From Candidatus Azambacteria bacterium (GTDB taxonomy: Bacteria; Patescibacteriota; Minisyncoccia; UBA10092), in contig JACRAJ010000001.1 in assembly GCA_016213445.1 (NCBI GenBank), positions 142,203 through 206,202 on the forward strand: a stretch of DNA of 64,000 bases, in the 5' to 3' direction. Shown here piece by piece: positions 5,486 to 63,546 of the stretch. Each line of letters starts with the position of its first letter. Within the stretch, counting starts at the first letter, position 1. Under the pieces are notes generated by a model. That model saw nothing but the letters and a program-made list of their open reading frames with translations, ran no database searches and was not told where the DNA came from. Position numbers and translations under genes: made by a program.

Positions 5486-7273
5486 TTACGGCGCCAGTGT
5501 CTCGGCGCGCTCCAGTTCTTTTTTAGCCTGTTCTATTTGTAAAAGCTGGGCGGGATCGGAAGTGATTATTTGGTCTTCGGTGTAGGAAGCGATTACTTTG
5601 ATGGCGACGTGCTTGGAACCGGCGAAAAACAAGCCTTCGCCGACGTCCGATTCAAGAAGCAGGAATTTTTCCTCGTCGGTTAAATTAAAAGTTTTTTGGA
5701 TAACGTCTATGTTCGCCGGCGATTGTTTAAACAAAAATTGAAGCGACGAGTTGGTTAAAATCGGCTTGCCGTACGGAGAGTTTATAAAATCGCTTACGTC
5801 TTGAGTGATGGTCGTGACCCCCAAAAAATATTTTCTGGCGCGCTTGGCGATGCCGAACAAAAACGAGGCGCCGTCGTCGTGTTTCATCAGCCACCAAGCT
5901 TCGTCAACCATGAGGATTCTTTTTTTAAGTTCCGAACGAACCATGTTCCAGATAAAGTGAAGAATTATGTACATTGCCGCGGGCCGCAATTCTTCTTCCA
6001 TATCCCTGATGCTGAAAACCACCAGTTTGTTTTTTATTTCGAGATTTGTCCTATTGTTCAAAAATCCCGCGTAAGAACCGGTGACATATTTTTCAAGCCG
6101 GCGGCTTAGCGATTCGGCTCCGGCCATGCTGTCTAAAACAGTTTTTAAATCGGACATTGTCGGCATTACGGCTTTCGAAAAATCGGAATTCGGCGTTATG
6201 TCGCGGCTGGCGTAGGTTTGGGTGATGGCAGAATCGATAATAGCGTCTTCTTCAGGCGTGAGTCCCCCGAGCATTATGCGGATCAGTCCCACCAAACTAA
6301 TGACTCCCGATCTTAAAATGTCGGCCGGATTTTCACCCTCCTTGGGAATTGGCAAATCAAACGGATTAAGGTGGTTTTCCGAAGTGAGTGAAATTTTGAA
6401 AAAAGCGCCGCCTATTGTTTCGGCGAGATATTGATATTCATTTTCAGGGTCGATTACGATAACATCGGTTCCGAACATTAGCGAACGCAAAATTTCGAGT
6501 TTCGACGCATAAGATTTGCCGCCTCCGGATTTGCCGAAAACCACGGTATTGGCATTTTCCAAGGAAAAGCGGTCGAAAAGAACCAGTGAATTGTTGTGGC
6601 GGTTGATGCCGTAAAGAATGCCGTTGTCGGAAGTTAAATCCGATGAAACAAAAGGAAAGGTGGCGGCAATCGGCCCCGAATTCATCGGGGTGTTTATCTC
6701 CAATTCATCCGTCATCAGGGGAAGAGTTGATTTAAAGCCCTTGTCTTGCTGATAAATCGCCGACTTGCTGTACGCGAGCTTGGTATCCAAAATCGAACGC
6801 AGGGAAGTTTCCATTTTATTCAGTTCTTCAAGCGAATTGCCGTAAAGGGTGATATATAACCCGAATTTAAAAAATTTTTCTCTCGCTTGCTGAAGTTTGT
6901 CGCGCAAGTCTTCAAGGTCTTGATAGGCGGTTTCAAGCATCGGATCGCGCACCAAGCCCTTTTCCTCCCGCATGCTGATTTCCGACGCCACTTGCGCCAC
7001 TTTTTTCCTCAAGCTTTTCAAGGCCGCGCCGGTGTCGATGGGATGGATAAAAAAACTCACATCCAAAGTTTTGTCTAAATTTATAACTTCGGAAAACCAG
7101 TTGGTGTTTAAAAATCTGGGGTAGTTGAAAACAAAAAAAGTCCGCGCCAGTTTTTTATTGAGCCGCAAAAAAGACGGATCGATTTCCAAAGCCGCCGGCG
7201 CCAAAATACTGCGCAAATCCGCGGCCGCGGCGTTTGTTATTTGTTCTTTTTTATTTGAAAATATGGGTGTCAT
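5486..7273 (-). CDS. virB4: VirB4/TrbE/PrgJ-family T4SS ATPase (ATPase portion)
   Basis: 595 aa. Walker A is VVFGKSGGGKSYASK. Also present are VIDPENEY and the Walker B-like RILMVDEAWWLM. Confidence 0.9.
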   Translation of the reverse strand: MTPIFSNKKEQITNAAAADLRSILAPAALEIDPSFLRLNKKLARTFFVFNYPRFLNTNWFSEVINLDKTLDVSFFIHPIDTGAALKSLRKKVAQVASEISMREEKGLVRDPMLETAYQDLEDLRDKLQQAREKFFKFGLYITLYGNSLEELNKMETSLRSILDTKLAYSKSAIYQQDKGFKSTLPLMTDELEINTPMNSGPIAATFPFVSSDLTSDNGILYGINRHNNSLVLFDRFSLENANTVVFGKSGGGKSYASKLEILRSLMFGTDVIVIDPENEYQYLAETIGGAFFKISLTSENHLNPFDLPIPKEGENPADILRSGVISLVGLIRIMLGGLTPEEDAIIDSAITQTYASRDITPNSDFSKAVMPTMSDLKTVLDSMAGAESLSRRLEKYVTGSYAGFLNNRTNLEIKNKLVVFSIRDMEEELRPAAMYIILHFIWNMVRSELKKRILMVDEAWWLMKHDDGASFLFGIAKRARKYFLGVTTITQDVSDFINSPYGKPILTNSSLQFLFKQSPANIDVIQKTFNLTDEEKFLLLESDVGEGLFFAGSKHVAIKVIASYTEDQIITSDPAQLLQIEQAKKELERAETLAP

Positions 7274-27866: not shown

Positions 27867-27977
27867 TCGAGAAAAATGGTTGGCTGTGTTTTGACCCATC
27901 GATGGAATATTGCTATCATCATTTAAATATTTTGCTTTGCGCCGCGCTTGATAATTGCGGCAGGAGTTTAAAATTTC

Positions 27978-28048
27978 GGGCCCATAGTAAAGTGGCATTA
28001 CGCTACATTCGCATTGTAGAGGCGGGAGTTCGATTCTCCCTGGGTCCA
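27978..28048 (+). tRNA. tRNA-Ala (anticodon CGC); integration target
   Basis: Acceptor GGGCCCA/TGGGTCC carries the G3:U70 identity pair. Anticodon arm CTACA-TTCGCAT-TGTAG. The discriminator A is followed by CAA rather than CCA because of the insertion. Confidence 0.9.
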
Positions 28049-29563
28049 CAATTCAAAACTTTTCAACTTTTTCGCTGGGGACAAGTCGGAATGCTCGCCG
28101 CACCCAGTGGCGCGGCTCGCAAGGAATTGAGCCCAAAAATCCCACGGCGCAGAAAACGAAAAGGAAACGGATTTGTCCAAAAGTTGATGGTTCGTTCCAA
28201 CTTTTTGGACAAATGCCTTTATTTCTCCGAAACTGTCGCTCCGCGACAGTTTTTCGGCTTTCTGTATGTCTAAAATCCAACTCCGCAATGGTTCAATCCA
28301 ATTCTTTCCCATGCGTCCAAAATCGCTCTTTTGGGACGCAAGAGAAACTTTTTGTTTCAAAAGTTCTTCCTTTTTGACGAGATAACTTTCCTTTGGTATG
28401 TCGCCGTCAATATAAGAAGAAACGAGCTTGTCCAGTTTCTCTTGCGTCTCTTTCTGATTTCCCCGCAGATTTTGGACGAATGTTTGCGATGAGTCTACTT
28501 GCTCCTTTTCCCACGCTTCAACTTGCTTCAACATTTTTCCCGTCCACTCATCGCAAAGCGCAACGCTTTGAAGCCGTGATTTTAGTTGCGAAACAAGCAA
28601 ATCTTCTCGTAAATATTTTTGAGCACAATTTCCCTTTTTCCGCGTACACCGATAGTAGCGATATGTTCCGCCGTTGCCGTGCGCGTATTGAGCGGTGATT
28701 GCGCTTCCACATTGTCCACAGGTGAGTAGTCCGGTAAAAGGGAAATTGTGCCTCTGTTTGGATTTGCGAGGTTTTGCTTTTCGCTTCAAAATCTCCTGCA
28801 CGGCTTCAAAGGTTGCGAGGGAAAGAATTGGCTCAAAGCGTCCGTCAAAGTATTCGCCTTTGTGCGCCACAAAACCGAGATATGCCCGATTGGTGAGCAT
28901 CCGATGGACGGATGCTTTGGCAAGTGGCGTTCGGTGCCGAGTTTCAATACCAAGTTCCGCCAAAAACTCCGAAAGAGATTTAAGCGTATGCGTGCCTTTG
29001 GCGAATTCCTCAAACGCTCGCACTACAATTTTTGATTTCGCGGGGTGCGGTTCAATCGTGCGAGTTTTGGGATTGTTCACATAGCCAAAGGGTGCGAGCG
29101 TCAGCCATTCTCCACGGCGGAGTTTTTGGCGGATACCGCGATTGATGTTCTCTACCAAATTATCCGAGTAATATTTGGATTGACCGAACGCCACTTGCAA
29201 CATAAATTTCCCTTGCGGAGTTGGCTCAAACCAAAATGTCGGAAAACGCAAAGAAACGATTTTTTCGATATCCACGAGATAGATGACGCGTCCGCCGTCA
29301 ACGCTATTGCGAGCAAGGCGATCCGGATGCCAGGCGAGTATTCCCACGCCTTGCGATTGCTCAATAAGCGTCATCATCTCGTTGAATTTCTCTCGTCCGG
29401 GTTTCTTTGCGCTTTCCGCCTCGGTAAATTCTTGGAGAATTTCCGCATTTTCTCTACGCGCATATTCTCGTAGCTCAAAGAGTTGAGCTTCAATACTCAT
29501 AATTTGGTGGTCGTCATCTTCGGTGGACTTGCGAGCGTAGAGAAAATATTTTGGTTTGAGCAT
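27998..29563 (-). CDS. Large serine recombinase (resolvase domain + recombinase domain + zinc ribbon)
   Basis: 521 aa. The N-terminus is YARKSTEDDDHQIMSIEAQ (catalytic Ser region). A Cys cluster CGQCGS...YYRC follows. The last 15 codons read antisense through the tRNA-Ala gene. Confidence 0.9.
   Translation of the reverse strand: MLKPKYFLYARKSTEDDDHQIMSIEAQLFELREYARRENAEILQEFTEAESAKKPGREKFNEMMTLIEQSQGVGILAWHPDRLARNSVDGGRVIYLVDIEKIVSLRFPTFWFEPTPQGKFMLQVAFGQSKYYSDNLVENINRGIRQKLRRGEWLTLAPFGYVNNPKTRTIEPHPAKSKIVVRAFEEFAKGTHTLKSLSEFLAELGIETRHRTPLAKASVHRMLTNRAYLGFVAHKGEYFDGRFEPILSLATFEAVQEILKRKAKPRKSKQRHNFPFTGLLTCGQCGSAITAQYAHGNGGTYRYYRCTRKKGNCAQKYLREDLLVSQLKSRLQSVALCDEWTGKMLKQVEAWEKEQVDSSQTFVQNLRGNQKETQEKLDKLVSSYIDGDIPKESYLVKKEELLKQKVSLASQKSDFGRMGKNWIEPLRSWILDIQKAEKLSRSDSFGEIKAFVQKVGTNHQLLDKSVSFSFSAPWDFWAQFLASRATGCGEHSDLSPAKKLKSFELWTQGESNSRLYNANVA
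28050..28151 (+). repeat. Repeat Y (left end of element)
   Basis: Its 102 bp differ at 5 positions from the reverse complement of 29614-29715. Confidence 0.9.
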
Positions 29564-29613
29564 AATTTTTGAATTAGGATTTTAGATATACAGTCTGTTT
29601 CCGTTTCGTTCAA

Positions 29614-29715
29614 TGCGCCGTGGGATTTTTTGGCTCAATTCCTTGCGAGCCGCGCCTCTCGGCGCGGCGAGCATTCCGAATTGTCCCCAGCGAAAAAGTT
29701 GAAAAGTTTTGAATT
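29614..29715 (-). repeat. Repeat Y, inverted internal copy
   Basis: Reverse complement of 28050-28151 with 5 substitutions. On the plus strand it encodes an alternative recombinase-tail cassette, APWDFLAQFLASRASRRGEHSELSPAKKLKSFELWDILKIARTHFEER*. Confidence 0.9.
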
Positions 29716-29719
29716 GTGG

Positions 29720-29858
29720 GATATTCTAAAAATAGCGCGAACCCATTTTGAAGAAAGATAACGCCTCGCTTCGCTCGGCGAATCCGCTCGGGCGGCGCGG
29801 GAAGGAGGGGTGGGGGGAGGAATGCCCGCGCCGCCCTCGCTTTCGGAAAGTCGCGCGC
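29720..29858 (-). repeat. Repeat X, inverted internal copy
   Basis: Reverse complement of 31076-31213 with one substitution and one C-run indel. It is contiguous with inverted Y across a GTGG core at 29716-29719. Confidence 0.9.
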
Positions 29859-29935
29859 TAAAATTTCCAAAAATCACAATAAAATAGTAAAATGAGAATG
29901 GGTCGATTATCTTAAATTTTCTAAAAAATATTTCT

Positions 29936-30154
29936 ATGGATAGAAAACATTTCAAATGTCTGTTATGGAAAACCTTGTGGGGTTTGAGCGTCTTGTCTCT
30001 TGTCGCCGCATGGTTTTCGATAAAATCAAGTGCGGTACTTGGGCTTGATGCGGCGACTTGGTTTTGGAACGCTCTAATTTTTGTTGCGCTATCAATTCCG
30101 ATTAAGCTAGATTGCCATTCCTGCGATGTGTGTGGAATAAGTCCGCGAGCTTGA
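29936..30154 (+). CDS. Small two-TM membrane protein with C-terminal CHSCDVC motif, hypothetical
   Basis: 72 aa with two hydrophobic helices. Located in the cargo module of the element. Confidence 0.45.
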   Translation: MDRKHFKCLLWKTLWGLSVLSLVAAWFSIKSSAVLGLDAATWFWNALIFVALSIPIKLDCHSCDVCGISPRA

Positions 30155-30249
30155 CGAGAAACTTTTTTCATGCTATCATAGCGGCAGAATGAAAAGTGGT
30201 GTGTAGCCACTTTTCCAGTTGAAAACAAACCGAAAAATGGAGGTGTCAA

Positions 30250-30990
30250 ATGTTCGGACAGCTGACAGAGTTCGTTCTGCCGCGTATAATTGGAGTTATG
30301 CTTCACAAGCGCGAAAAACTCACCAAGAAAGAACAGGTGGCGCAAGATGCGTTCATGGCGAAGCTCGACATCAAGAAGCGCAAGACCGATAAGCCGGTCG
30401 TCGTGGCCGTCATCGGCCTCGTTGGTTCCGGCAAGAGTTCGGTGGCGCACGAGCTTGCCAAGCACATCGGTGCGACGGTTATCGAGGGAGACGACATTCG
30501 TATCGAGCTTCGCAAACAGAATGAACGCTACGAGAAATCGCGCGCCATCGCCGAGAACGCCGCTATCGAAGTCGTGAAGCAGGGTGGCAATGTCATTCTC
30601 GATTCCGACTTCGTGGACGAGAAGAAGCGCGCGAGCGTTCGCGAGAAAGCACGCAAGGCAGGCGTGCGCCTCGTCTTCGTTCGTACTCACTGCGACCTCG
30701 ACGTCATGGTGGGCCGCGTCCTTACCGCAACCTATCACAATCGCGTTGACGATTTCTTCGGCGGCGCGAAGTCCAAGTGGCAAGGAAGCGAGCAATCGAA
30801 AGGCGCGGCGGTGAAGGTTCGCGAGATGTGGCGGCGCACGCCTCACCATTATCGCTGGGTCAATCAAGGCGGCGGGCAGTGGAAACTCAAAAAGTTTCCG
30901 TTCGCAATCTTCGCCGAGATTGACACCACGGATTCCGATTCGTGGAAACGCGAAGTGGAGAAGTGCGCGAAGCAACTCCTCACGCGGTAA
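30250..30990 (+). CDS. P-loop kinase/NTPase (AAA_33 / zeta-toxin-like fold class)
   Basis: 246 aa preceded by GGAGG 8 nt upstream. Walker A is VIGLVGSGKSSVAHEL and a Walker B-like motif is NVILDSDF. The gene is GC-rich. The 516-aa antisense ORF over it is judged an artefact. Confidence 0.7.
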   Translation: MFGQLTEFVLPRIIGVMLHKREKLTKKEQVAQDAFMAKLDIKKRKTDKPVVVAVIGLVGSGKSSVAHELAKHIGATVIEGDDIRIELRKQNERYEKSRAIAENAAIEVVKQGGNVILDSDFVDEKKRASVREKARKAGVRLVFVRTHCDLDVMVGRVLTATYHNRVDDFFGGAKSKWQGSEQSKGAAVKVREMWRRTPHHYRWVNQGGGQWKLKKFPFAIFAEIDTTDSDSWKREVEKCAKQLLTR

Positions 30991-31075
30991 ATCGCAATCA
31001 AGGGCGACCGAGGCAAAAGCCAAGGTCGCCCTTTCTCTTTCTTTGATTTTTTGGTAAATTAAATTCATAATAGTT

Positions 31076-31213
31076 GCGCGCGACTTTCCGAAAGCGAGGG
31101 CGGCGCGGGCATTCCTCCCCCCACCCTCCTTCCCGCGCCGCCCGAGCGGTTTCGCCGAGCGAAGCGAGGCGTTATCTTTCTTCAAAATGGGTTCGCGCTA
31201 TTTTTAGAATATC
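31076..31213 (+). repeat. Repeat X (right end of element)
   Basis: Contains a 12-bp GC stem, GGGCGGCGCGGG...CCCGCGCCGCCC. It ends ...TTTTTAGAATATC followed by the CCAC core at 31214-31217. Confidence 0.9.
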
Positions 31214-31329
31214 CCACCATAAGGAACTTTCAGAATTTTTTGAGCCAGGCGACAGGCGCCGCCAGTTAGGAAATGAAGCAGTTGGCTCGCCAGCCGATTT
31301 TAATTTTGATTAGTTGGCTGGTTAATTAG

Positions 31330-32100
31330 CTATTTAAGGACAATTAGCCAGAAAAAAAGAGTTAGAAGTATGCGATAGACGCCAAATGGCGCAAAATTAT
31401 GCTTTTTAATAAAACTAAGCAGGAATTTGATGCTCGCCATTGCGGTGATAAAAGAAACTATGAATCCGATAGTCAAGACCCCAAATTGGTCTTTTGAAAA
31501 ATAATCCGCATTTTTGATGAGATCCAGCCCGCTTGCGGCAAGCATTGTTGGAACAGCCAGTAAAAAAGAGAATTCTACAATAGTTTTTCTCTTTAACCCC
31601 ACTAATAAACCCCCGACAATAGTGGCCGCTGAACGCGATATGCCGGGAATTATCGCAATAGATTGGCAAAGCCCCACCCAAAACGATTGTTTGTATGAAA
31701 TTTGCTCTATTCCATCTCCGGCGCCTTCAGATTCTTTGTGCCAAAACTCAAAAATTATTAATGCCGCGCCTCCAAGAATCAGTGCCCACAAAACCACGTT
31801 TTGATTGCCGATGAGATGGGTTTTTACGACTTTATATAACGCGAGACCAATAATGCCGGTTGGTATGAACCCGATAATTATTTTTTTCAGGTTTATAATA
31901 TTGAGGAATGATTTCCAGTATAGAACTACTACGGAAAAGATTGCCCCGAATTGGATAATTATTTCAAAACTTTTTACGAAATTTGATTGGCTTATTTTTA
32001 GAAGCTCGCTAGTCAGTATGAGGTGGCCGGTGGATGATATCGGTAAAAATTCCGTAACACCTTCCACAACTCCCATAATTAAACTGTGTAATATAGTCAT
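31330..32100 (-). CDS. uppP: Undecaprenyl-diphosphatase
   Basis: 256 aa. The N-terminus is MGVVEGVTEFLPISSTGHL and an internal motif is PGISRSAATI. Confidence 0.9.
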   Translation of the reverse strand: MTILHSLIMGVVEGVTEFLPISSTGHLILTSELLKISQSNFVKSFEIIIQFGAIFSVVVLYWKSFLNIINLKKIIIGFIPTGIIGLALYKVVKTHLIGNQNVVLWALILGGAALIIFEFWHKESEGAGDGIEQISYKQSFWVGLCQSIAIIPGISRSAATIVGGLLVGLKRKTIVEFSFLLAVPTMLAASGLDLIKNADYFSKDQFGVLTIGFIVSFITAMASIKFLLSFIKKHNFAPFGVYRILLTLFFWLIVLK

Positions 32101-32889: not shown

Positions 32890-33849
32890 TTAACCACACA
32901 CATTTGTCGGTTTTCCGTTTAATAATAATTCTAACATTTCATTTGGCGTTTTACCGTTTAATCCGCAGTGTTCCAAGTTGTTGTATTCATCATTCCATAT
33001 CCTAATCTTTGTTTTCAATTCTTTCAGATTTTTGGATTTGTTTCTATCGTAGAACATCTCTTGGTCAGTCCTATGGCTTCTTTCTACCTTGCCATTCTGC
33101 GCCGGCTTGCCCGGATCAATCAGATAATGCATCATATTGTATTTTTGGCATAAGACATCAAATTCATGCAGTCTGGAATTTAAAGGATCAATACTTTTCT
33201 GATATCCGACATATCTGTTTGTGAAATTGCTTCCGTTGTCCGTCTTAATAGCCCGTATCCAGAATGGAGCGATGCCAAGTATTTCTTTCAAAAATTTCAT
33301 TGAACTGAAATTTGAATAATCCGGATATATTTTTAAATATCTCCATCTGGAAGCGCAATCTATGGCCGTGAATTGGTAATACCGCCTGTTTTCAATCAAA
33401 TCCGGCACATATTTAACATCTATCTCCACCAAATCTCCCTGCATTAAAGGAACTTTGATATATTTGTATTTTAATTTTCTAACCCTGTATTTTCTTACCA
33501 ACCCTTCTTTTTTTATTATCTTCTGTATCGTATTTCTGTGAATCATAATCCCTTCTTTCTCCAATTGCCATTTCAGCTTCAAAGCGCAGAGTTTCCTTTC
33601 TCTCCTCATTTCAACCACTCTTTCCTTTATCCTTATCGGAGTTTCTTTCGGATTTGTCTTAGGCCTTGTTGATTTCGACTCCAATCCGATTTCTCCGTTC
33701 TTCCGGTATTCAGCCAGCCATCTTTCCAAACTTCGTTTCGAATGCGGACATATCTTAACCGCATCAACCATTCTTATCTCTTTATTATATATCGGCAGTA
33801 TCCATCTAAGCCTTTCTTCTTTGATTGTTTTAGGCATATTTATACTCAT
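32890..33849 (-). mobile_element. IS481-family-like DDE transposase gene (HTH + rve integrase core); IS ends not resolved
   Basis: 319 aa. Contains N-terminal HTH, then DLVEIDVKYV, IKTDNGSNFT and PAQNGKVERSHRT, which together give a D, D, E core. Only weak terminal-repeat similarity was seen around 32860-32885 and 33900-33925. Confidence 0.8.
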
Positions 33850-34088
33850 ATCCCAGCTTAAAAGCTGGGGACAGAAACCGCCATATGTGTATGGACATTA
33901 CCACAATTGATTGACAAATATGGCGTTTAGATGTATGACGGTAGGCATAGTTCTTTGATAAGACTTGCGATTGGTCATAGCGAAAAGTGGCTTAAAACTA
34001 GGCCATTCCTCGCTATGACCACACAGGCCATGGCTCCTCTTCGGATTAGAGGAAAACGAAACGGGCAAATTAGCCCGAGGAGGTACAC

Positions 34089-34604
34089 ATGAGCACAGAG
34101 TGGCGCGAGGAAGACGGCGTCATCTACTTTGGCGTCACCTCGGACGGCACGACCGGCGAAGCCTGGATCAAGCGTCTGGAAGGCAACGGTTTCAGCGTCG
34201 AAGACTACGCCAAGCAGGTGCTCCGTTCGCCGGACTTCAAACCGACGAGCGGCGTGACGACCGAAGTCGCCGTTCTCAAGGGCATGCTCTTCGAGGACAA
34301 CGACCGGATCACGAAAAAAGTTCGTACCGAGGCCAACAAGCGCAGGCTTTCGAAGCCGAACGCCGAACTGGCTTGCCTCATCCGTGAGAAGTTCACGGAC
34401 AAGGAGATCGAAGCGATGGGTCTGTGGTATGTCATTGCCATGCACGAACCCATCAACGACTCCGACGGCGGTTCGAACTTGCTGCACGCGGGCCGTAGCG
34501 GCGTTGGTCGCTGGCTCGACGCGTACTTCGACAGGCCTGGCAGCAGGTGGAGTCGTGACAACGGGTTCGCGTTCGCCGTGTCGCAAGTCAGCTCTAAACA
34601 CTAA
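34089..34604 (+). CDS. DGR variable (target) protein, 171 aa, C-terminal CLec-like variable region
   Basis: GAGGAGG lies 7 nt upstream of the ATG. The gene is GC-rich and has no signal peptide. The C-terminus ...GRWLDAYFDRPGSRWSRDNGFAFAVSQVSSKH contains the VR. Confidence 0.85.
   Translation: MSTEWREEDGVIYFGVTSDGTTGEAWIKRLEGNGFSVEDYAKQVLRSPDFKPTSGVTTEVAVLKGMLFEDNDRITKKVRTEANKRRLSKPNAELACLIREKFTDKEIEAMGLWYVIAMHEPINDSDGGSNLLHAGRSGVGRWLDAYFDRPGSRWSRDNGFAFAVSQVSSKH
34459..34589 (+). repeat. DGR variable region (VR)
   Basis: Gap-free 131-nt alignment to the TR. All 15 mismatches fall at TR adenines. Confidence 0.9.
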
Positions 34605-34611
34605 ATTCCTT

Positions 34612-34625
34612 GGGACTTCAGTCCC
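34612..34625 (+). other. GC hairpin GGGAC-TTCA-GTCCC 22 nt downstream of VR
   Basis: A perfect 5-bp stem with a 4-nt loop. Its position is analogous to the target-recognition hairpin reported for the Bordetella phage DGR. Confidence 0.5.
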
Positions 34626-34639
34626 TTTGAATTTAGCCC

Positions 34640-34680
34640 TTAGCCCTGTTCCGATCCGTCGGAGCAGGGCTAAATTTTTT
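34640..34680 (+). terminator. Intrinsic terminator of the DGR target gene
   Basis: TTAGCCCTG...CAGGGCTAA stem with an inner TCCGA/TCGGA helix, followed by a T-run. Confidence 0.6.
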
Positions 34681-35011
34681 TCATAAAATATATAACTGGG
34701 TACAATGTTTCTCCGTCGCTCAGACGTCGTGTACGAGAGTACTCGTCCACGCGATCTTCGCTAGGAGAAATAAAATCGGCTATAATATTCGTGGCAGTAG
34801 GTGAATATGCGGACGGTCAAGGCTTTCCGCTACCGAACCCAGTATCCATGCGTCGAGAGTATCCGCGGCCACGGTTTCGGATAGAGTGGTGCATGCAGAA
34901 ACTTCAATAAAAAAGAAGATACTTGGCGCGAGACATTAAGGCATTGCGATGCCGGATTCGATTCAGTCCTGAGAGTATTCGAGGGGCGGTGATATGGAAG
35001 ATGTTTCGCGC

Positions 35012-35142
35012 AATCCGACGGCGATTCGAACTTGCTGAACGCGAACCGTAACGACGATGGTCGCTGGCTCAACGCGTACAACGACAGGCCTGACAACAGG
35101 TGGAATCGTGACAACGGGTTCGCGTTCGCCGTGTCGCAAATC
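35012..35142 (+). repeat. DGR template repeat (TR)
   Basis: Reads ...NLLNANRNDDGRWLNAYNDRPDNRWNRDNGFAFAVSQ and is rich in AAC codons. Same orientation as the VR. It ends 3 nt from the avd stop codon, which lies on the other strand. Confidence 0.9.
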
Positions 35143-35145
35143 TCT

Positions 35146-35547
35146 TCATTTCTCTCCGGCTTTTGCTGGAGAGTTTTGTTTTGCGAGCTGACCGTTCCAA
35201 CCGCCGAGCATCTTGCCGGCTTCATCCAGTTTTACGGAAAGAGCGATGTATTTTTTATCGTCGAGGGATTTCGTTTCCCAGAGCACCAAAAGAAGTACGC
35301 GGAGAGTGTCCGCTTTCTTGATTGCGAGACGAACATACGGATGTTTCTCCGCCGGTGAAAGGAAACTGGCGGCCGATATCGCTTCTATCACTTCGACAAA
35401 TAAAGTGTCGATGCGCTGGCCGAGAGAATGACGATGCACCTTGGGCAAGTCCTGATAAAATTTGTACCACAAAAGGTACGACTCCTTGACTTTATTTAAA
35501 ACCGGTAAAATTCTTAATGGTTGGTTGGTTGCCACCGTTATGCCCAA
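35146..35547 (-). CDS. avd: DGR accessory variability determinant (Avd, four-helix-bundle protein)
   Basis: 133 aa. Contains ESYLLWYKFYQDLPKVHRHSLGQRIDTLFVEVIEAI, matching the pattern of the Avd / 23S-rRNA-IVS four-helix-bundle family. Confidence 0.85.
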   Translation of the reverse strand: MGITVATNQPLRILPVLNKVKESYLLWYKFYQDLPKVHRHSLGQRIDTLFVEVIEAISAASFLSPAEKHPYVRLAIKKADTLRVLLLVLWETKSLDDKKYIALSVKLDEAGKMLGGWNGQLAKQNSPAKAGEK

Positions 35548-36553
35548 AATTAGATTTCAACATACATATAATAATATCATTTTCCTCGAAAATATCCTCG
35601 AGGCGTGGAAAGAATTTGTCCGCGGCAAGCGAGCGCGTAAAGACGTGCAGGAATTCGAGCGAGATTTGATGACGAATCTTATCGCGCTCCACCGTGAGCT
35701 TGCCGCCAAAAAATATTCTCACTCGGCATATCAGCATTTCAAAATTGCCGATCCGAAACCGCGCGATATACATAAAGCCAGCGTTCGGGACCGGCTTTTG
35801 CATCACGCGTTGCACAGGCAGCTGTCGCCATTTTTCGCAAAGACGTTTATTTCCGACTCGAATTCATGCCAAGACGGTAAAGGGACGCACCGCGCGCTCC
35901 GCAGATTCAGAAAATTCATCGGCATCGTTTCGGAAAACAATATCCGGACGGTATGGGTGCTTAAGTGCGACATTAGAAAGTTTTTCGCAAACATAGATCA
36001 TTCGATCCTATTGGATATAGCCGCAAAATATATTCCCGATCAAGACATTCTCGATCTCGTGTCGATCATCGTCCGGAGCTTTCATTCAAACGTCGTCGGC
36101 GTAGGACTTCCGCTCGGCAATCTGACGTCCCAGCTTTTGGTGAACATTTACATGAATGAATTCGACCAATTTATGAAGCATCGCATCAAGGCGAAATACT
36201 ATCTACGCTACGCCGACGACTTTGCCGTTCTTTCTACAGACAAGACGTACCTTGAGGCCATTCTGCCGGCGATGCAGGAATTTTTAGGAAGCAAGCTCAA
36301 GCTCTCCATGCATCCGGATAAGATTTTTATTCAGACCGTCGCTTCGGGCGTCGACTTTCTCGGCTGGGTGCATTTTCCGGATCATCAGGTCTTGAGGACG
36401 ACGACCAAAAAGAGGATGTTCAGAAATATAAAAGCGAAGGATGGAAAGGAAGAAACGGTGCAGTCATATCTTGGACTCATCGGCCACGGTAACAGCTGGA
36501 AATTGCGACATAAAATTCTCGATAAAGCATCCAAGCTCAAGCCTTCCAATTAA
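35540..36553 (+). CDS. DGR reverse transcriptase
   Basis: The start is taken at MPKIRFQ. Motifs seen: PKPRDIHKASVRDRLLHHAL, LPLGNLTSQLLVNIYM (the DGR-type SQ motif) and YLRYADDFAVLS. Confidence 0.9.
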   Translation: MPKIRFQHTYNNIIFLENILEAWKEFVRGKRARKDVQEFERDLMTNLIALHRELAAKKYSHSAYQHFKIADPKPRDIHKASVRDRLLHHALHRQLSPFFAKTFISDSNSCQDGKGTHRALRRFRKFIGIVSENNIRTVWVLKCDIRKFFANIDHSILLDIAAKYIPDQDILDLVSIIVRSFHSNVVGVGLPLGNLTSQLLVNIYMNEFDQFMKHRIKAKYYLRYADDFAVLSTDKTYLEAILPAMQEFLGSKLKLSMHPDKIFIQTVASGVDFLGWVHFPDHQVLRTTTKKRMFRNIKAKDGKEETVQSYLGLIGHGNSWKLRHKILDKASKLKPSN

Positions 36554-38177: not shown

Positions 38178-38231
38178 CCGGGAAAAAATTTTGCAAATTT
38201 TTGATCTTTAAAACTGCAAAGGAGGAGTGTT

Positions 38232-42320: not shown

Positions 42321-42439
42321 AGTGAGTATCTTTACGATTCCGCTCGAACTTACTTTATCAAAAATTCCTGAACACTAAGGAAGCCGCCCCGCCGCCTGCT
42401 CGCTCAGAGCAGGGCCAAGCAAAATACTCTTTTCCTTTG

Positions 42440-61183: not shown

Positions 61184-61455
61184 TCCAAATTTCTTAAATG
61201 CCGCCAAAGAAAAATTGGAAATTGTTATCGGTGCGGCGGAGCCGCCTTTCTGTATTTTCGCGGGGGGACTTCCTCGCCGCCTGCGGCGGCGAAATGCGTT
61301 CGGACTAATTCAAGAATACTGCACCAAAACTTACTTTGTCGGAAATGACTGCTCCGCGCGGCGAGTACGCCGCGCTCCGCAAGGCAAAATCCGCTTTTGT
61401 TTTCGCCGTGAAATCCCATAATCTTCCCCGATAGGGGAACTGTTTAAAAATAATT

Positions 61456-63546
61456 ATGGAATTTTTAAATCATTTTTTGCAAACAATCCAACACCTGGGA
61501 GTATTTGGATATTTGCTAATTTTATTTATTTCTTTAGCGGAGTCATTTCCGTTTTTAGGTTTAATCGTCCCCGGCGCTATTATTGTCGGGCTTTTTGGAT
61601 TTTTCTCGGCGCAAGGGTATCTCGACATCGGGGATTTGATTTGGTTTTCCGCCATCGGCGCGATACTCGGGGACGGCATAAGTTATTACTTGGGAACAAA
61701 AGGAACAAAACTTTTTCGCCAAGAAAACAAAATACTTAAATTGAGCCATTTGGAAAAAGGCGAGAATTTTTTCAGGAAGCACGGCAACAAAAGCATATTT
61801 CTGGGCAGATTTATAGGTCCGCTTAGATCCATTATTCCGTTTGTCGCGGGACTCTTCCGAATGGACAAAAAGGTCTTCTTGTTTTGGAACGTCGCGAGCG
61901 GAATTCTTTGGGCTGTTTCTTTTCTGCTCCTTGGCTATTTCTTCGGCGGCGCATTAAAAACAATTGAAATCTGGTCGAGCCGAGCAGGAATTTTTATCTT
62001 AGCAATTGTTGCGTCTCTCATCATCATCCGCATTCTTACAAAATACATACCGCCATTTTTCGCTTTTCTAAAATCGATATCTTTATCCATTAAGGAAGCT
62101 GTTGTTGCCAATCCTGACGTAAAACATTTTGTTGAAAAACACCCGGTATTTTTCAAGTTCACCAGCCAGAGATTAAATAGGGGTAGATTCTCCGGTCTGC
62201 CGCTCACGTTTCTTAGCGTAGCTTTTGTATACGTGTTGTTTCTTTTTCTCGGCGTTATTGAAGATATCCTTACCTCTGATGTTATTATCGCGGTGGATAT
62301 GCGAGTGGCAAATCTTTTATTTACCTTTCGCGACGCCGAGCTTGTAAAAATTTTCACTTGGATAACATTGCTTGCGAAATGGCAGATAGTCGTAAGTTCG
62401 GCAATTGTTCTTTCTGTCATTCTTTGGTTATGGAAGAAAAGAATATATCTGCTTCCGCTTTGGGTGACGCTTGCCGGAAGCGAGCTTTTTAATTCTCTCG
62501 GAAAACTGGCATTTCACCGTCCGCGACCCGATGCCTCGTTGTATATTGAAGACACTTTCTCTTTTCCGTCAGGACATTCAACGATAGCCGTCGCGTTTTA
62601 CGGTTTTCTCATATACATCTTGTTCCGGCACATTAAAAAATGGAAGTATAAAGTCAATGTTCTATTTTTCGGCATCATATTGATTTTGGCAATCGGCTTG
62701 AGCCGTATATATCTCGGCGTTCATTTTTTGAGCGATGTGTGGGGCGGCTATCTTTTGGGCGCGCTTTGGCTTCTCATAGGAATTACTGTTTCGGAATGGT
62801 TGCGGCATCGCAAACCATTACTATTATTCACTTCGACACAAAAAACCAAGATTGCCGTTTTAATTTTTATTCTTGCGGAGCTCGCTTTTTATGTGAATTT
62901 TGCCCTCCGTTACAATCCGCCTGTCGCGCGCCAAGAAAAGCCGGGTGTGATTGTAGCCGCCGATGCGTTGGATATATTCGGAGATAAAGAAATTTCTCGC
63001 TTTACTGAAACGTTGTTTGGTGAACGACAAGAGCCTTTAAGTTTTATTGTCATTGCCAAAAATGACCAACTGCTTATAGACGCCATGCGAAAAGCCGGTT
63101 GGTATCGGGCCGACACGGCAACTTTTATTTCCGTGGCGAAGCTTGCAAAGTCCGCAATATCAAACGAAAATTATCCGACTGCGCCGATGACGCCTTCATT
63201 TTGGGATGCCAGGGTTCACGATTTCGGTTTTGAAAAACCGACCGAAGCGCAAAGCGCGCGCGAGCGGCATCATGCGAGATTTTGGCGCGCGCAATTTGAA
63301 ACCAAAAACGGCAATCGTGTTTATGTCGGAACGGCGAGCCAAGACATTGGCGTAAAGTGGCTCATTACGCACACTATAAAACCCGATATCGATACGGAAA
63401 GAGAAATTTTGTTTTCCGATTTAGAAAACGCCGGCGCCATATCGAGTTTTACGAAAGAAAAATTTGTAGAGCCGACGCTTGGCACAAATTTTTCCGGAGA
63501 TCAATTTTTCACTGACGGGAAGGCGTATGTAATTATTTTAAAATAA
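61456..63546 (+). CDS. Fusion membrane protein: DedA/SNARE-associated domain + PAP2 phosphatase + LssY-like C-terminal domain
   Basis: 696 aa. The DedA part reads GDGISYYLG...FLGRFIGPLRSIIPFVAG. The PAP2 part reads KLAFHRPRP...SFPSGHST...SRIYLGVHFLSDV. The C-terminal part reads ...RERHHARFW.... Confidence 0.8.
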   Translation: MEFLNHFLQTIQHLGVFGYLLILFISLAESFPFLGLIVPGAIIVGLFGFFSAQGYLDIGDLIWFSAIGAILGDGISYYLGTKGTKLFRQENKILKLSHLEKGENFFRKHGNKSIFLGRFIGPLRSIIPFVAGLFRMDKKVFLFWNVASGILWAVSFLLLGYFFGGALKTIEIWSSRAGIFILAIVASLIIIRILTKYIPPFFAFLKSISLSIKEAVVANPDVKHFVEKHPVFFKFTSQRLNRGRFSGLPLTFLSVAFVYVLFLFLGVIEDILTSDVIIAVDMRVANLLFTFRDAELVKIFTWITLLAKWQIVVSSAIVLSVILWLWKKRIYLLPLWVTLAGSELFNSLGKLAFHRPRPDASLYIEDTFSFPSGHSTIAVAFYGFLIYILFRHIKKWKYKVNVLFFGIILILAIGLSRIYLGVHFLSDVWGGYLLGALWLLIGITVSEWLRHRKPLLLFTSTQKTKIAVLIFILAELAFYVNFALRYNPPVARQEKPGVIVAADALDIFGDKEISRFTETLFGERQEPLSFIVIAKNDQLLIDAMRKAGWYRADTATFISVAKLAKSAISNENYPTAPMTPSFWDARVHDFGFEKPTEAQSARERHHARFWRAQFETKNGNRVYVGTASQDIGVKWLITHTIKPDIDTEREILFSDLENAGAISSFTKEKFVEPTLGTNFSGDQFFTDGKAYVIILK

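Follow-up and report, generated by a model that had tools for sequence, protein, structure and literature searches.

In SSV1-type integrase partition and in the integration-dependent immunity of mycobacteriophages, the phage attachment site (attP) lies within a coding sequence, and integration into a tRNA gene alters the encoded protein. The yeast 2-micron plasmid carries the FRT sites of FLP, a tyrosine recombinase, in inverted repeats of 599 base pairs (bp). Among islands that target tRNA genes, the tycheposons use tyrosine recombinases in 910 of 937 elements. Serine integrases are prized in genome engineering, and tRNA genes are not among their well-documented targets; in a 2020 survey, t(m)RNA genes were the site of 4.9% of serine-integrase elements, a use described there as rare and previously unreported (PMC7192596). 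Here we analysed an element of ~3.2 kilobases (kb) in a window of 64,000 nucleotides (nt) from Candidatus Azambacteria bacterium (contig JACRAJ010000001.1, positions 142,203–206,202; all coordinates of the element are window positions). The element extends from 28050 to 31217, abuts the extreme 3′ end of a tRNA-Ala(CGC) gene and encodes a large serine recombinase (LSR). We conclude, with a probability of roughly 75%, that it is integrated and belongs to a very large family of small, LSR-moved cargo islands in Patescibacteria, and that this copy is probably old and composite. The family is apparently undescribed: a literature search returned no description of the recombinase family or of its internal, inverted attP design.

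Structure and boundaries of the element

Read along the plus strand, on which all arms and cores are given, the locus consists of the tRNA gene, CCAC, an X′ arm, the recombinase gene (minus strand), an X arm, GTGG, a Y′ arm, the cargo genes (plus strand), a Y arm, CCAC and the flank. The tRNA-Ala(CGC) gene occupies 27978–28049 (plus strand; ARAGORN; Rfam tRNA, 64.8 bits), and its acceptor and T-arm serve as the attachment site's B arm; with the element in place the gene continues as ...TCCA-CAA, with no encoded CCA. A preliminary description made from the sequence alone had proposed that an LSR element sits directly at the 3′ extremity of this gene, and this is borne out by ARAGORN, Rfam, Pfam and the junction sequence. 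The left junction reads ...TGGGTCCAC|AATTCAAAAC, with the crossover core CCAC at 28046–28049 and the break at 28049/28050, and the right junction reads ...GAATATCCCAC|CATAAGG, with the core at 31214–31217 and the break at 31217/31218. Both cores are present where they had been placed, and the core is common to attL, the right junction and an internal site at 29716–29719, where it appears as its reverse complement, GTGG.

Long inverted repeats, identified by a repeat search, connect these three sites. Repeat I1 pairs 28046–28171 with 29594–29719 (126 nt, 92% identity) and covers the X′ arm (28050–28171), which is the attP P′ arm at attL, and its inverted copy, the X arm (29594–29715), located 31–152 nt upstream of the recombinase start codon. 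The X′ arm is 89% identical to an arm of the related locus L001 and encodes recombinase residues ~466–506 on its minus strand; a tblastn search of the window with residues 460–506 gave a match at 29576–29719. Repeats I2 and I3 pair the Y′ arm (29720–29865) with the Y arm (31069–31213), the attP P arm at the right end, at 90–95% identity. The recombinase module and the cargo module are each flanked on both sides by inverted repeats, and 29594–29865 is the reverse complement of the right end, CCAC and the left end, so that attP is present there intact and in inverted form. Such a copy of the joined ends had been reported at 29614–29858, and the repeats extend it on both sides. The similarity between the junctions is not a matter of chance: the long arms rule this out and fix the boundaries to the base, whereas a 4-bp core alone would be at chance level. 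The claim that the interior is GC-rich relative to the flanks also holds (0.49 versus 0.41–0.43, with 0.44 for the window and 0.56–0.60 for the kinase gene of the cargo), the difference being modest.

Inverted repeats that bound each module are also what a transposon or insertion sequence with terminal inverted repeats would display, whether as one element or as two adjacent ones, and they might point to an assembly artefact. We regard all three readings as very improbable. The cores are inverted and non-palindromic (CCAC...GTGG), which makes excision of a single module by a serine recombinase impossible; target-site duplications are absent, insertion is always at a tRNA 3′ end and the domain order is that of an LSR, not IS607-like. 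An artefact is contradicted by the 8–10% difference between repeat copies and by recurrence of the layout in dozens of independent assemblies. The IS607 transposon family in particular was ruled out by the N-terminal catalytic domain, the length of 521 amino acids (aa) with LSR domains and the constant tRNA 3′ target.

A large family of islands in Patescibacteria

The recombinase has >6,400 database relatives, of which the best 120 are 61–94% identical to it and derive nearly all from Patescibacteria. To describe the family we analysed 80 loci from species-representative genomes using self-BLAST and ARAGORN. The inverted repeat bracketing the recombinase was found in 49 of the 52 loci whose flanks reach ≥300 nt upstream and ≥60 nt downstream; one arm is the 3′ end of the gene and the other lies just 5′ of the start codon (median length 131 nt, median identity 99.2%, 28 of 65 perfect). 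The repeat bracketing the cargo begins exactly where the first repeat stops, encloses 1.1–6.5 kb (median arm 219 nt, 99.1% identity) and was present in 25 of 37 loci with >3 kb upstream. This layout is the rule among the loci, and the inverted attP inside the element is conserved throughout the family. The antisense 3′ end of a tRNA gene adjoins the 3′ end of the recombinase gene in 56 loci, representing 23 anticodon species.

Clusters of recombinases with at least 90% identity contain differing tRNA-derived tails and at least four arm types, and within them the same lineage occurs at differing targets. Tails and arms that differ between such close relatives indicate that elements have moved recently, and the arms appear to behave as exchangeable DNA cassettes. 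Contigs end within an arm in 41 of 80 cases, which is expected because the repeats exceed the assembler k-mer. Tandem chains were found in four loci (L028, L040, L087 and L088). The chains in L040 (900–14400), L028 and L088 each consist of three recombinase-plus-cargo modules, and the units of L040 are spaced by ~180 nt that include a 15-nt tRNA 3′ fragment.

Outside Patescibacteria, relatives with 51–54% identity occur at the same tRNA junction in Chitinophagaceae bacterium PMP191F (L070), which may be a cultured strain, and in a Bacteroidetes metagenome-assembled genome (L071), with inverted arms of 157–193 nt and the upstream arm 600–750 nt from the recombinase start. Viral contigs contained few relatives, which were distant, and plasmids contained none above ~29% identity.

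The recombinase and its C terminus

The recombinase gene (27998–29563, minus strand) encodes 521 aa with the domain order Resolvase (PF00239, residues 7–153, E = 1e-22), Recombinase (PF07508) and Zn_ribbon_recom (PF13408), and its PHROGs match is PHROG 95, integrase. All residues that are invariant across an alignment of 31 relatives are present; S13 (in YARKST) is invariant or almost so in two alignments, and the zinc-ribbon cysteines C282, C285, C306 and C313 are invariant. The nearest solved structures are those of A118 integrase and SPbeta SprA, for which the C-terminal alignment reaches residue ~416. A coiled coil is weakly supported by long helices at 339–417 in a low-confidence AlphaFold2 model of a homologue. 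For a homologue carrying the native tail, the mean predicted local distance difference test score (pLDDT) was 61 and the C-terminal 100 residues scored <50.

As had been described, the open reading frame (ORF) runs over the left junction at 28049/28050, and its last 15 codons (TQGESNSRLYNANVA) are antisense to tRNA-Ala. In the attP configuration the sequence continues in frame as ...SFELW-DILKIARTHFEER*, giving a native tail of ...ELWDILKIARTHFEER, and the excised form would indeed have a different tail, as proposed. The broader statement that integration rewrites the C terminus is correct at the sequence level but has to be divided in two. Ahead of the crossover, the X arm encodes ~35 residues that are hypervariable among close relatives and look like translated att-site DNA, whereas the native tail beyond the core is constrained: its 13–17 residues follow the consensus x(I/L)Lxx(A/V)RTxFE, with both frame and length conserved. 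Across 44 internal copies, the entropy of the native-tail codons was lowest at position 2 (0.57), intermediate at position 1 (0.87) and highest at position 3 (1.16), which is a coding periodicity. Synonymous changes of the CGA arginine codon were never seen, and a DNA-level constraint therefore acts on top of the coding constraint. Based on this periodicity and conservation, the 13-residue native tail is probably functional and is lost upon integration.

Proposed recognition of tRNA genes

We aligned the junctions on the position from which the copy beside the tRNA and the internal copy diverge. In ~45 loci the tRNA (B) arm reads ..GGAATCGAACC.., with GAAC at +15, and the internal (P) arm reads ..TTTGC(G/T/A)CGAAC.., with GAAC at +20 or +21, which places a CGAAC motif resembling the tRNA T-loop 5–6 bp farther from the crossover in the attP arm than in the tRNA. 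In A118 integrase, the zinc-ribbon motif is 5 bp farther from the centre in attP than in attB (PMC3783163). The offset in this family agrees with that rule for LSR sites, from which we infer that the joined ends represent attP and the tRNA gene represents attB. Imitation of the universal T-loop by attP, at an offset, would explain the use of 23 tRNA species by a single family. The core common to the sites is CCAC in this element and 4–6 bp long in most loci.

In the mechanism we propose, integration would proceed by conservative attP × attB recombination at the short core in the tRNA acceptor end. The P arm of attP would mimic the tRNA T-arm (CGAAC), with the offset letting the zinc ribbon of the LSR tell attP from attB. 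Neither module can be excised on its own because the cores at its two ends are inverted and non-palindromic, and therefore only attL × attR recombination frees the element. Excision by this route would yield a circle of ~3.2 kb that contains attP twice, in opposite orientations, and in which the recombinase would regain the conserved 13-residue tail.

Two further forms of the element were considered and rejected. Circles containing only the recombinase or only the cargo are excluded by the inverted, non-palindromic cores of each module. A CTX-phi-like, single-stranded ‘dumbbell’ intermediate is excluded on topology, as double-strand cleavage by a serine recombinase would leave hairpin-capped chromosome ends; replication of such an intermediate would also give both orientations.

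The right junction and the pre-insertion site

According to the preliminary description, attL, attR, attB and attP could all be reconstructed from the window. This is correct for attL, attP and the boundaries, and is weakened for attR and attB by the right flank. There, 43 nt (31214–31256) are 91–94% identical to recombinase-3′ arms from a P0025-type element (blastn, E = 2e-10), and the reverse complement of the flank translates to ..SPGSKNSESSLWW, a typical recombinase end of the P0025 type. To judge from this homology, the flank right of 31217 (CATAAGGAAC...) is the relic arm of another family member and not host DNA. This relic X″ arm (31218–31290, plus strand; blastn matches to the arms of L088 and L089) adjoins the UppP stop codon at 31330. 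With a relic on this side, the right junction is attP-like (Y|X″) and not an attR against pristine host sequence; the pre-insertion site was probably an old attL, and the window copy would have landed beside the relic arm of an earlier element.

The simplest history would be one clean insertion into a pristine attB (tRNA-Ala...TCCA-CCA-TAAGG), from which excision restores an encoded CCA and for which an empty site, tRNA-Ala(CGC)-CCATAAGGAACTTTCAG, should adjoin uppP. It draws support from the CCAC at both junctions, from the CCA formed when the flanks are joined and from the three tRNA genes in the window that encode CCA. We nevertheless consider it improbable, given the homology of the right flank to the recombinase-3′ arms of another member and the finding that the right flank stays X′-like for 8–22 nt in 7 of 25 complete loci. 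Restoration of the encoded CCA, as earlier claimed, is not secure: the CCA in the reconstructed attB, GGGTCCA-CCA-TAAGG, may come from the relic, and the other 11 of the 14 tRNA genes in the window lack a genomic CCA, such that a CCA-less tRNA-Ala is normal there.

The search for an empty site, proposed as a check of the insertion, returned none. An exact scan for the tRNA 3′ end followed by CCATAAGG gave 0 matches, which also counts against a clean insertion; a scan for the tRNA 3′ half plus CCA gave 40 loci, none of them syntenic; and an approach via the UppP and AI-2E neighbours found synteny gone at 74–82% amino-acid identity. The missing empty site reflects a lack of data and does not count as evidence that none exists.

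Possible role of the internal attP

Our working hypothesis is that the internal attP most likely serves as a putative promoter/operator and 5′ leader of the recombinase gene and is also a live attP. The P arm of the internal copy contains a promoter-like site of sigma-70 type, TTCAAA-18-TAGAAT (29723–29752, minus strand), that points over the core and through the X arm to the recombinase gene. Scored in a fixed register across 45 loci, this site had a mean of 8.0 out of 12 compared to 5.9 for shuffled sequences and 4.4 for tRNA arms, in a group whose promoters are poorly known, and in 29 of these loci its −10 element stops 4 nt short of the junction. Overlap of the predicted protein-binding motifs with the promoter-like site suggests autoregulation. 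The internal copy would stay with the gene, since integration uses the copy at the 3′ end. The Y′ arm as a whole combines the native-tail codons (DILKIARTHFEER*) and the CGAAC motif with the promoter-like site, and also contains a GC hairpin whose loop is C-rich; the Y arm has an outward-facing copy of the promoter-like site at 31181–31210 (plus strand).

That the internal site can recombine is suggested by locus L061 (6780–8604), in which a recombinase module without cargo lies in inverted orientation between tRNA-Leu(caa) and tRNA-Leu(gag). Recombination of an internal attP with a second tRNA gene would be expected to give this arrangement.

A different role, which we consider rather unlikely, is that of a built-in switch, in which the recombinase or RecA flips modules across X′/X and Y′/Y and toggles activity or directionality; a flip of the recombinase module would swap its C terminus and change the sequence upstream of the gene. 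Such a design is self-consistent, as inversion at the cores recreates the same junction types (derived from sequence), and the native tail has coding periodicity. Flipped states do occur: in L086, a plus-strand tRNA-Ala(tgc) is followed by X′ and a plus-strand recombinase with a native tail, L020 is similarly flipped, and one cargo module in L088 is inverted relative to its neighbour and the usual arrangement. Yet the tRNA gene lies on the 5′ side of the recombinase in only 3 of ~68 loci (L086, L020 and L061), leaving ~96% in one orientation, unlike typical phase-variable loci, and the first cargo gene is nearly always divergent from the recombinase. While 41 of 80 contigs break at arms, breaks at repeats above the assembler k-mer are expected without inversion. 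The AlphaFold2 model of the tail region was uninformative, and canonical LSRs do not recombine attP with attL (PMC3783163).

A version in which the element switches itself seems to us quite unlikely. Here inversion of the recombinase module, or excision, would relocate the 3′ end of the recombinase gene from the tRNA junction to the internal attP or back, exchanging a junk tail for the native one; activity or directionality would change without an excision factor, and a second tRNA gene could be captured as in L061.

The distal Y arm also contains a GC-rich hairpin (29790–29835 and 31095–31140) with a conserved, anti-Shine-Dalgarno-like loop (ATTCCTCCCC..CCCCTCC). It is found in L001, L025, L053, L054, L059 and L067 as well, where the stems differ and pairing is kept, indicating covariation. 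An Rfam search of the arms, this hairpin included, gave no match except tRNAs.

Mobility and age of the window copy

Several points weigh against our reading of this locus as a mobile island with a live, regulatory internal attP. Two equivalent attP copies predict both orientations to be common, contrary to the observed bias, which is the main argument that either the two copies are not equivalent in practice or the other states are transient. The promoter-like site overlaps both the predicted protein-binding motifs and the tail codons, three constraints that are inseparable. The cargo here, a membrane-like ORF and a kinase, includes no recognisable candidate for a recombination directionality factor. 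No circular contig was seen among the contigs examined and, with neither an empty site nor a circle, we infer the mobility of the window copy. Finally, its arms are 90–92% identical to each other compared to a family median of ~99%, which suggests age or hybrid origin.

The low arm identity would also fit a stranded fossil, in which the ORF is intact, mobility has been lost and the structure records past events. We consider this somewhat less likely than not. Consistent with a fossil are the relic arm at the right end, further relic arms near tRNA-Leu(gag) and tRNA-Gly(tcc) in the window, and the only same-strain contig, from another run, which likewise carries the element and breaks within the Y arm. 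However, the recombinase retains every family-invariant residue, and both arms match variants current in other elements, such that their divergence may reflect arm exchange and not decay.

The additional relics are as follows. A solo attP-like relic (Y|X′) at 61260–61440 is 95.6% identical over 45 nt to the arm of L051, and its reverse complement encodes ..WDFTAKTKADFALRSAAYSPRGAVISDKVSFG and, in a different frame, CSILELVRTHF. Located just 5′ of a gene for a 696-aa VTT/PAP2/LssY_C membrane protein (61456–63546), this relic is separated by ~450 nt from the upstream tRNA-Leu(gag). A Y-arm match of 27 nt at 96% identity (42378–42404) lies 35 nt downstream of tRNA-Gly(tcc). The flank of tRNA-Ala(ggc) (GGGAAAAAATTTTGCAAATTTTTGA; 38180–38205) has AATTTTGCAAATTTT in common with the X arm of L086. 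Short arm matches beside two other tRNA genes suggest repeated past visits by such elements.

Cargo and neighbouring genes

The cargo comprises two plus-strand ORFs: a hydrophobic, membrane-like protein of 72 aa with a CxxC motif and no family match (29936–30154), and a P-loop kinase of 246 aa (AAA_33/zeta-toxin-like; Pfam and PHROGs) at 30250–30990. A terminator-like hairpin followed by a T-rich run (31000–31033, plus strand; inverted repeat I21) lies 3′ of the kinase gene. Across 27 elements of the family, which encode 101 cargo proteins, small XRE regulators predominate, usually as the first gene and divergent from the recombinase, and many relatives have an XRE regulator where the window element has the 72-aa ORF and the kinase. 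Other cargo includes DNA methyltransferases, LexA-like repressors, antitoxins and membrane proteins. No replication, relaxase or transfer families were found among the 25 commonest of the 94 Pfam families matched by these proteins, and with no replication genes in the commonest cargo families an amplification like that of the 2-micron plasmid was ruled out.

Other features lie close by. An IS481-like DDE transposase gene (32890–33849; rve, rve_3 and HTH_32) is located 1.6 kb from the element, between uppP/tRNA-His and a GC-rich stretch (33975–35200; 0.51–0.59). Beside this stretch, a 363-aa ORF with an RVT_1 domain (35462–36553; E = 4e-23) could be a retron, a diversity-generating element or a group II intron. 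Upstream of tRNA-Ala(CGC), a promoter-like TTGACC-17-TATCAT (27891–27919) falls within a block, ..CATCGATGGAATATTGCTATCAT.., that is conserved 3′ of the AI-2E gene in L135 and L136 (~7190–7240), where protein-coding genes follow and there is no tRNA.

Implications

With >6,400 database matches, the family might supply integrases whose natural landing sites are predictable, and T-arm recognition through an offset imitation in attP would be a compact account of targeting that is broad yet precise. The inverted attP design may couple the integration state to the expression or form of the recombinase and, if the internal attP is live, the family would drive inversions and deletions from one tRNA gene to another in the tiny Patescibacteria genomes. 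The islands carry restriction–modification, toxin–antitoxin and regulatory genes in a group whose means of gene exchange are poorly known. Since relics are present at several tRNA genes of a single window, these islands are probably a major route of accessory-gene flux and rearrangement in Patescibacteria.

Comparison with known systems

The Hin, Gin and Cin systems resemble the present element in combining a serine recombinase gene with segments bounded by inverted repeats. These are small invertases with sites of 26–34 bp and an enhancer, in contrast to the large integrase-type enzyme, arms of 90–435 nt and single dominant orientation found here. The predicted excised circle is similar to the 2-micron plasmid in having two inverted sites and two unique segments, one of which encodes the recombinase, whereas here replication genes are absent from the commonest cargo families and no free circle was seen.

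In SSV1 and in mycobacteriophage immunity systems, as in this element, attP is within a coding sequence. Those systems use tyrosine recombinases, while in the present element replacement is confined to the 13 C-terminal residues of a serine recombinase, and a spare, inverted native 3′ end is kept. Tycheposons and other tRNA-targeting islands share with this family the small cargo islands at tRNA 3′ ends, the tandem arrays and relics at the same tRNA gene, and the defence and accessory cargo; they differ in their nearly exclusive use of tyrosine integrases and in having no internal inverted attP.

Compared to phage-type large serine integrases (A118/LI, phiC31, Bxb1 and SPbeta SprA), the window enzyme is <30% identical to any characterised member, targets the 3′ ends of many different tRNA genes, and has an attP that overlaps the 3′ end of its own ORF, with a second, inverted attP inside the element. 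It also differs in its small-island context, with relatives rarely on viral contigs, and in having no recognisable directionality factor. The architecture of Resolvase, Recombinase, zinc ribbon and, putatively, coiled coil is nevertheless the same, as are the short crossover core and the attP motif located 5–6 bp farther out. The enzyme is a bona fide LSR, and its integration logic is that of the phage serine integrases.

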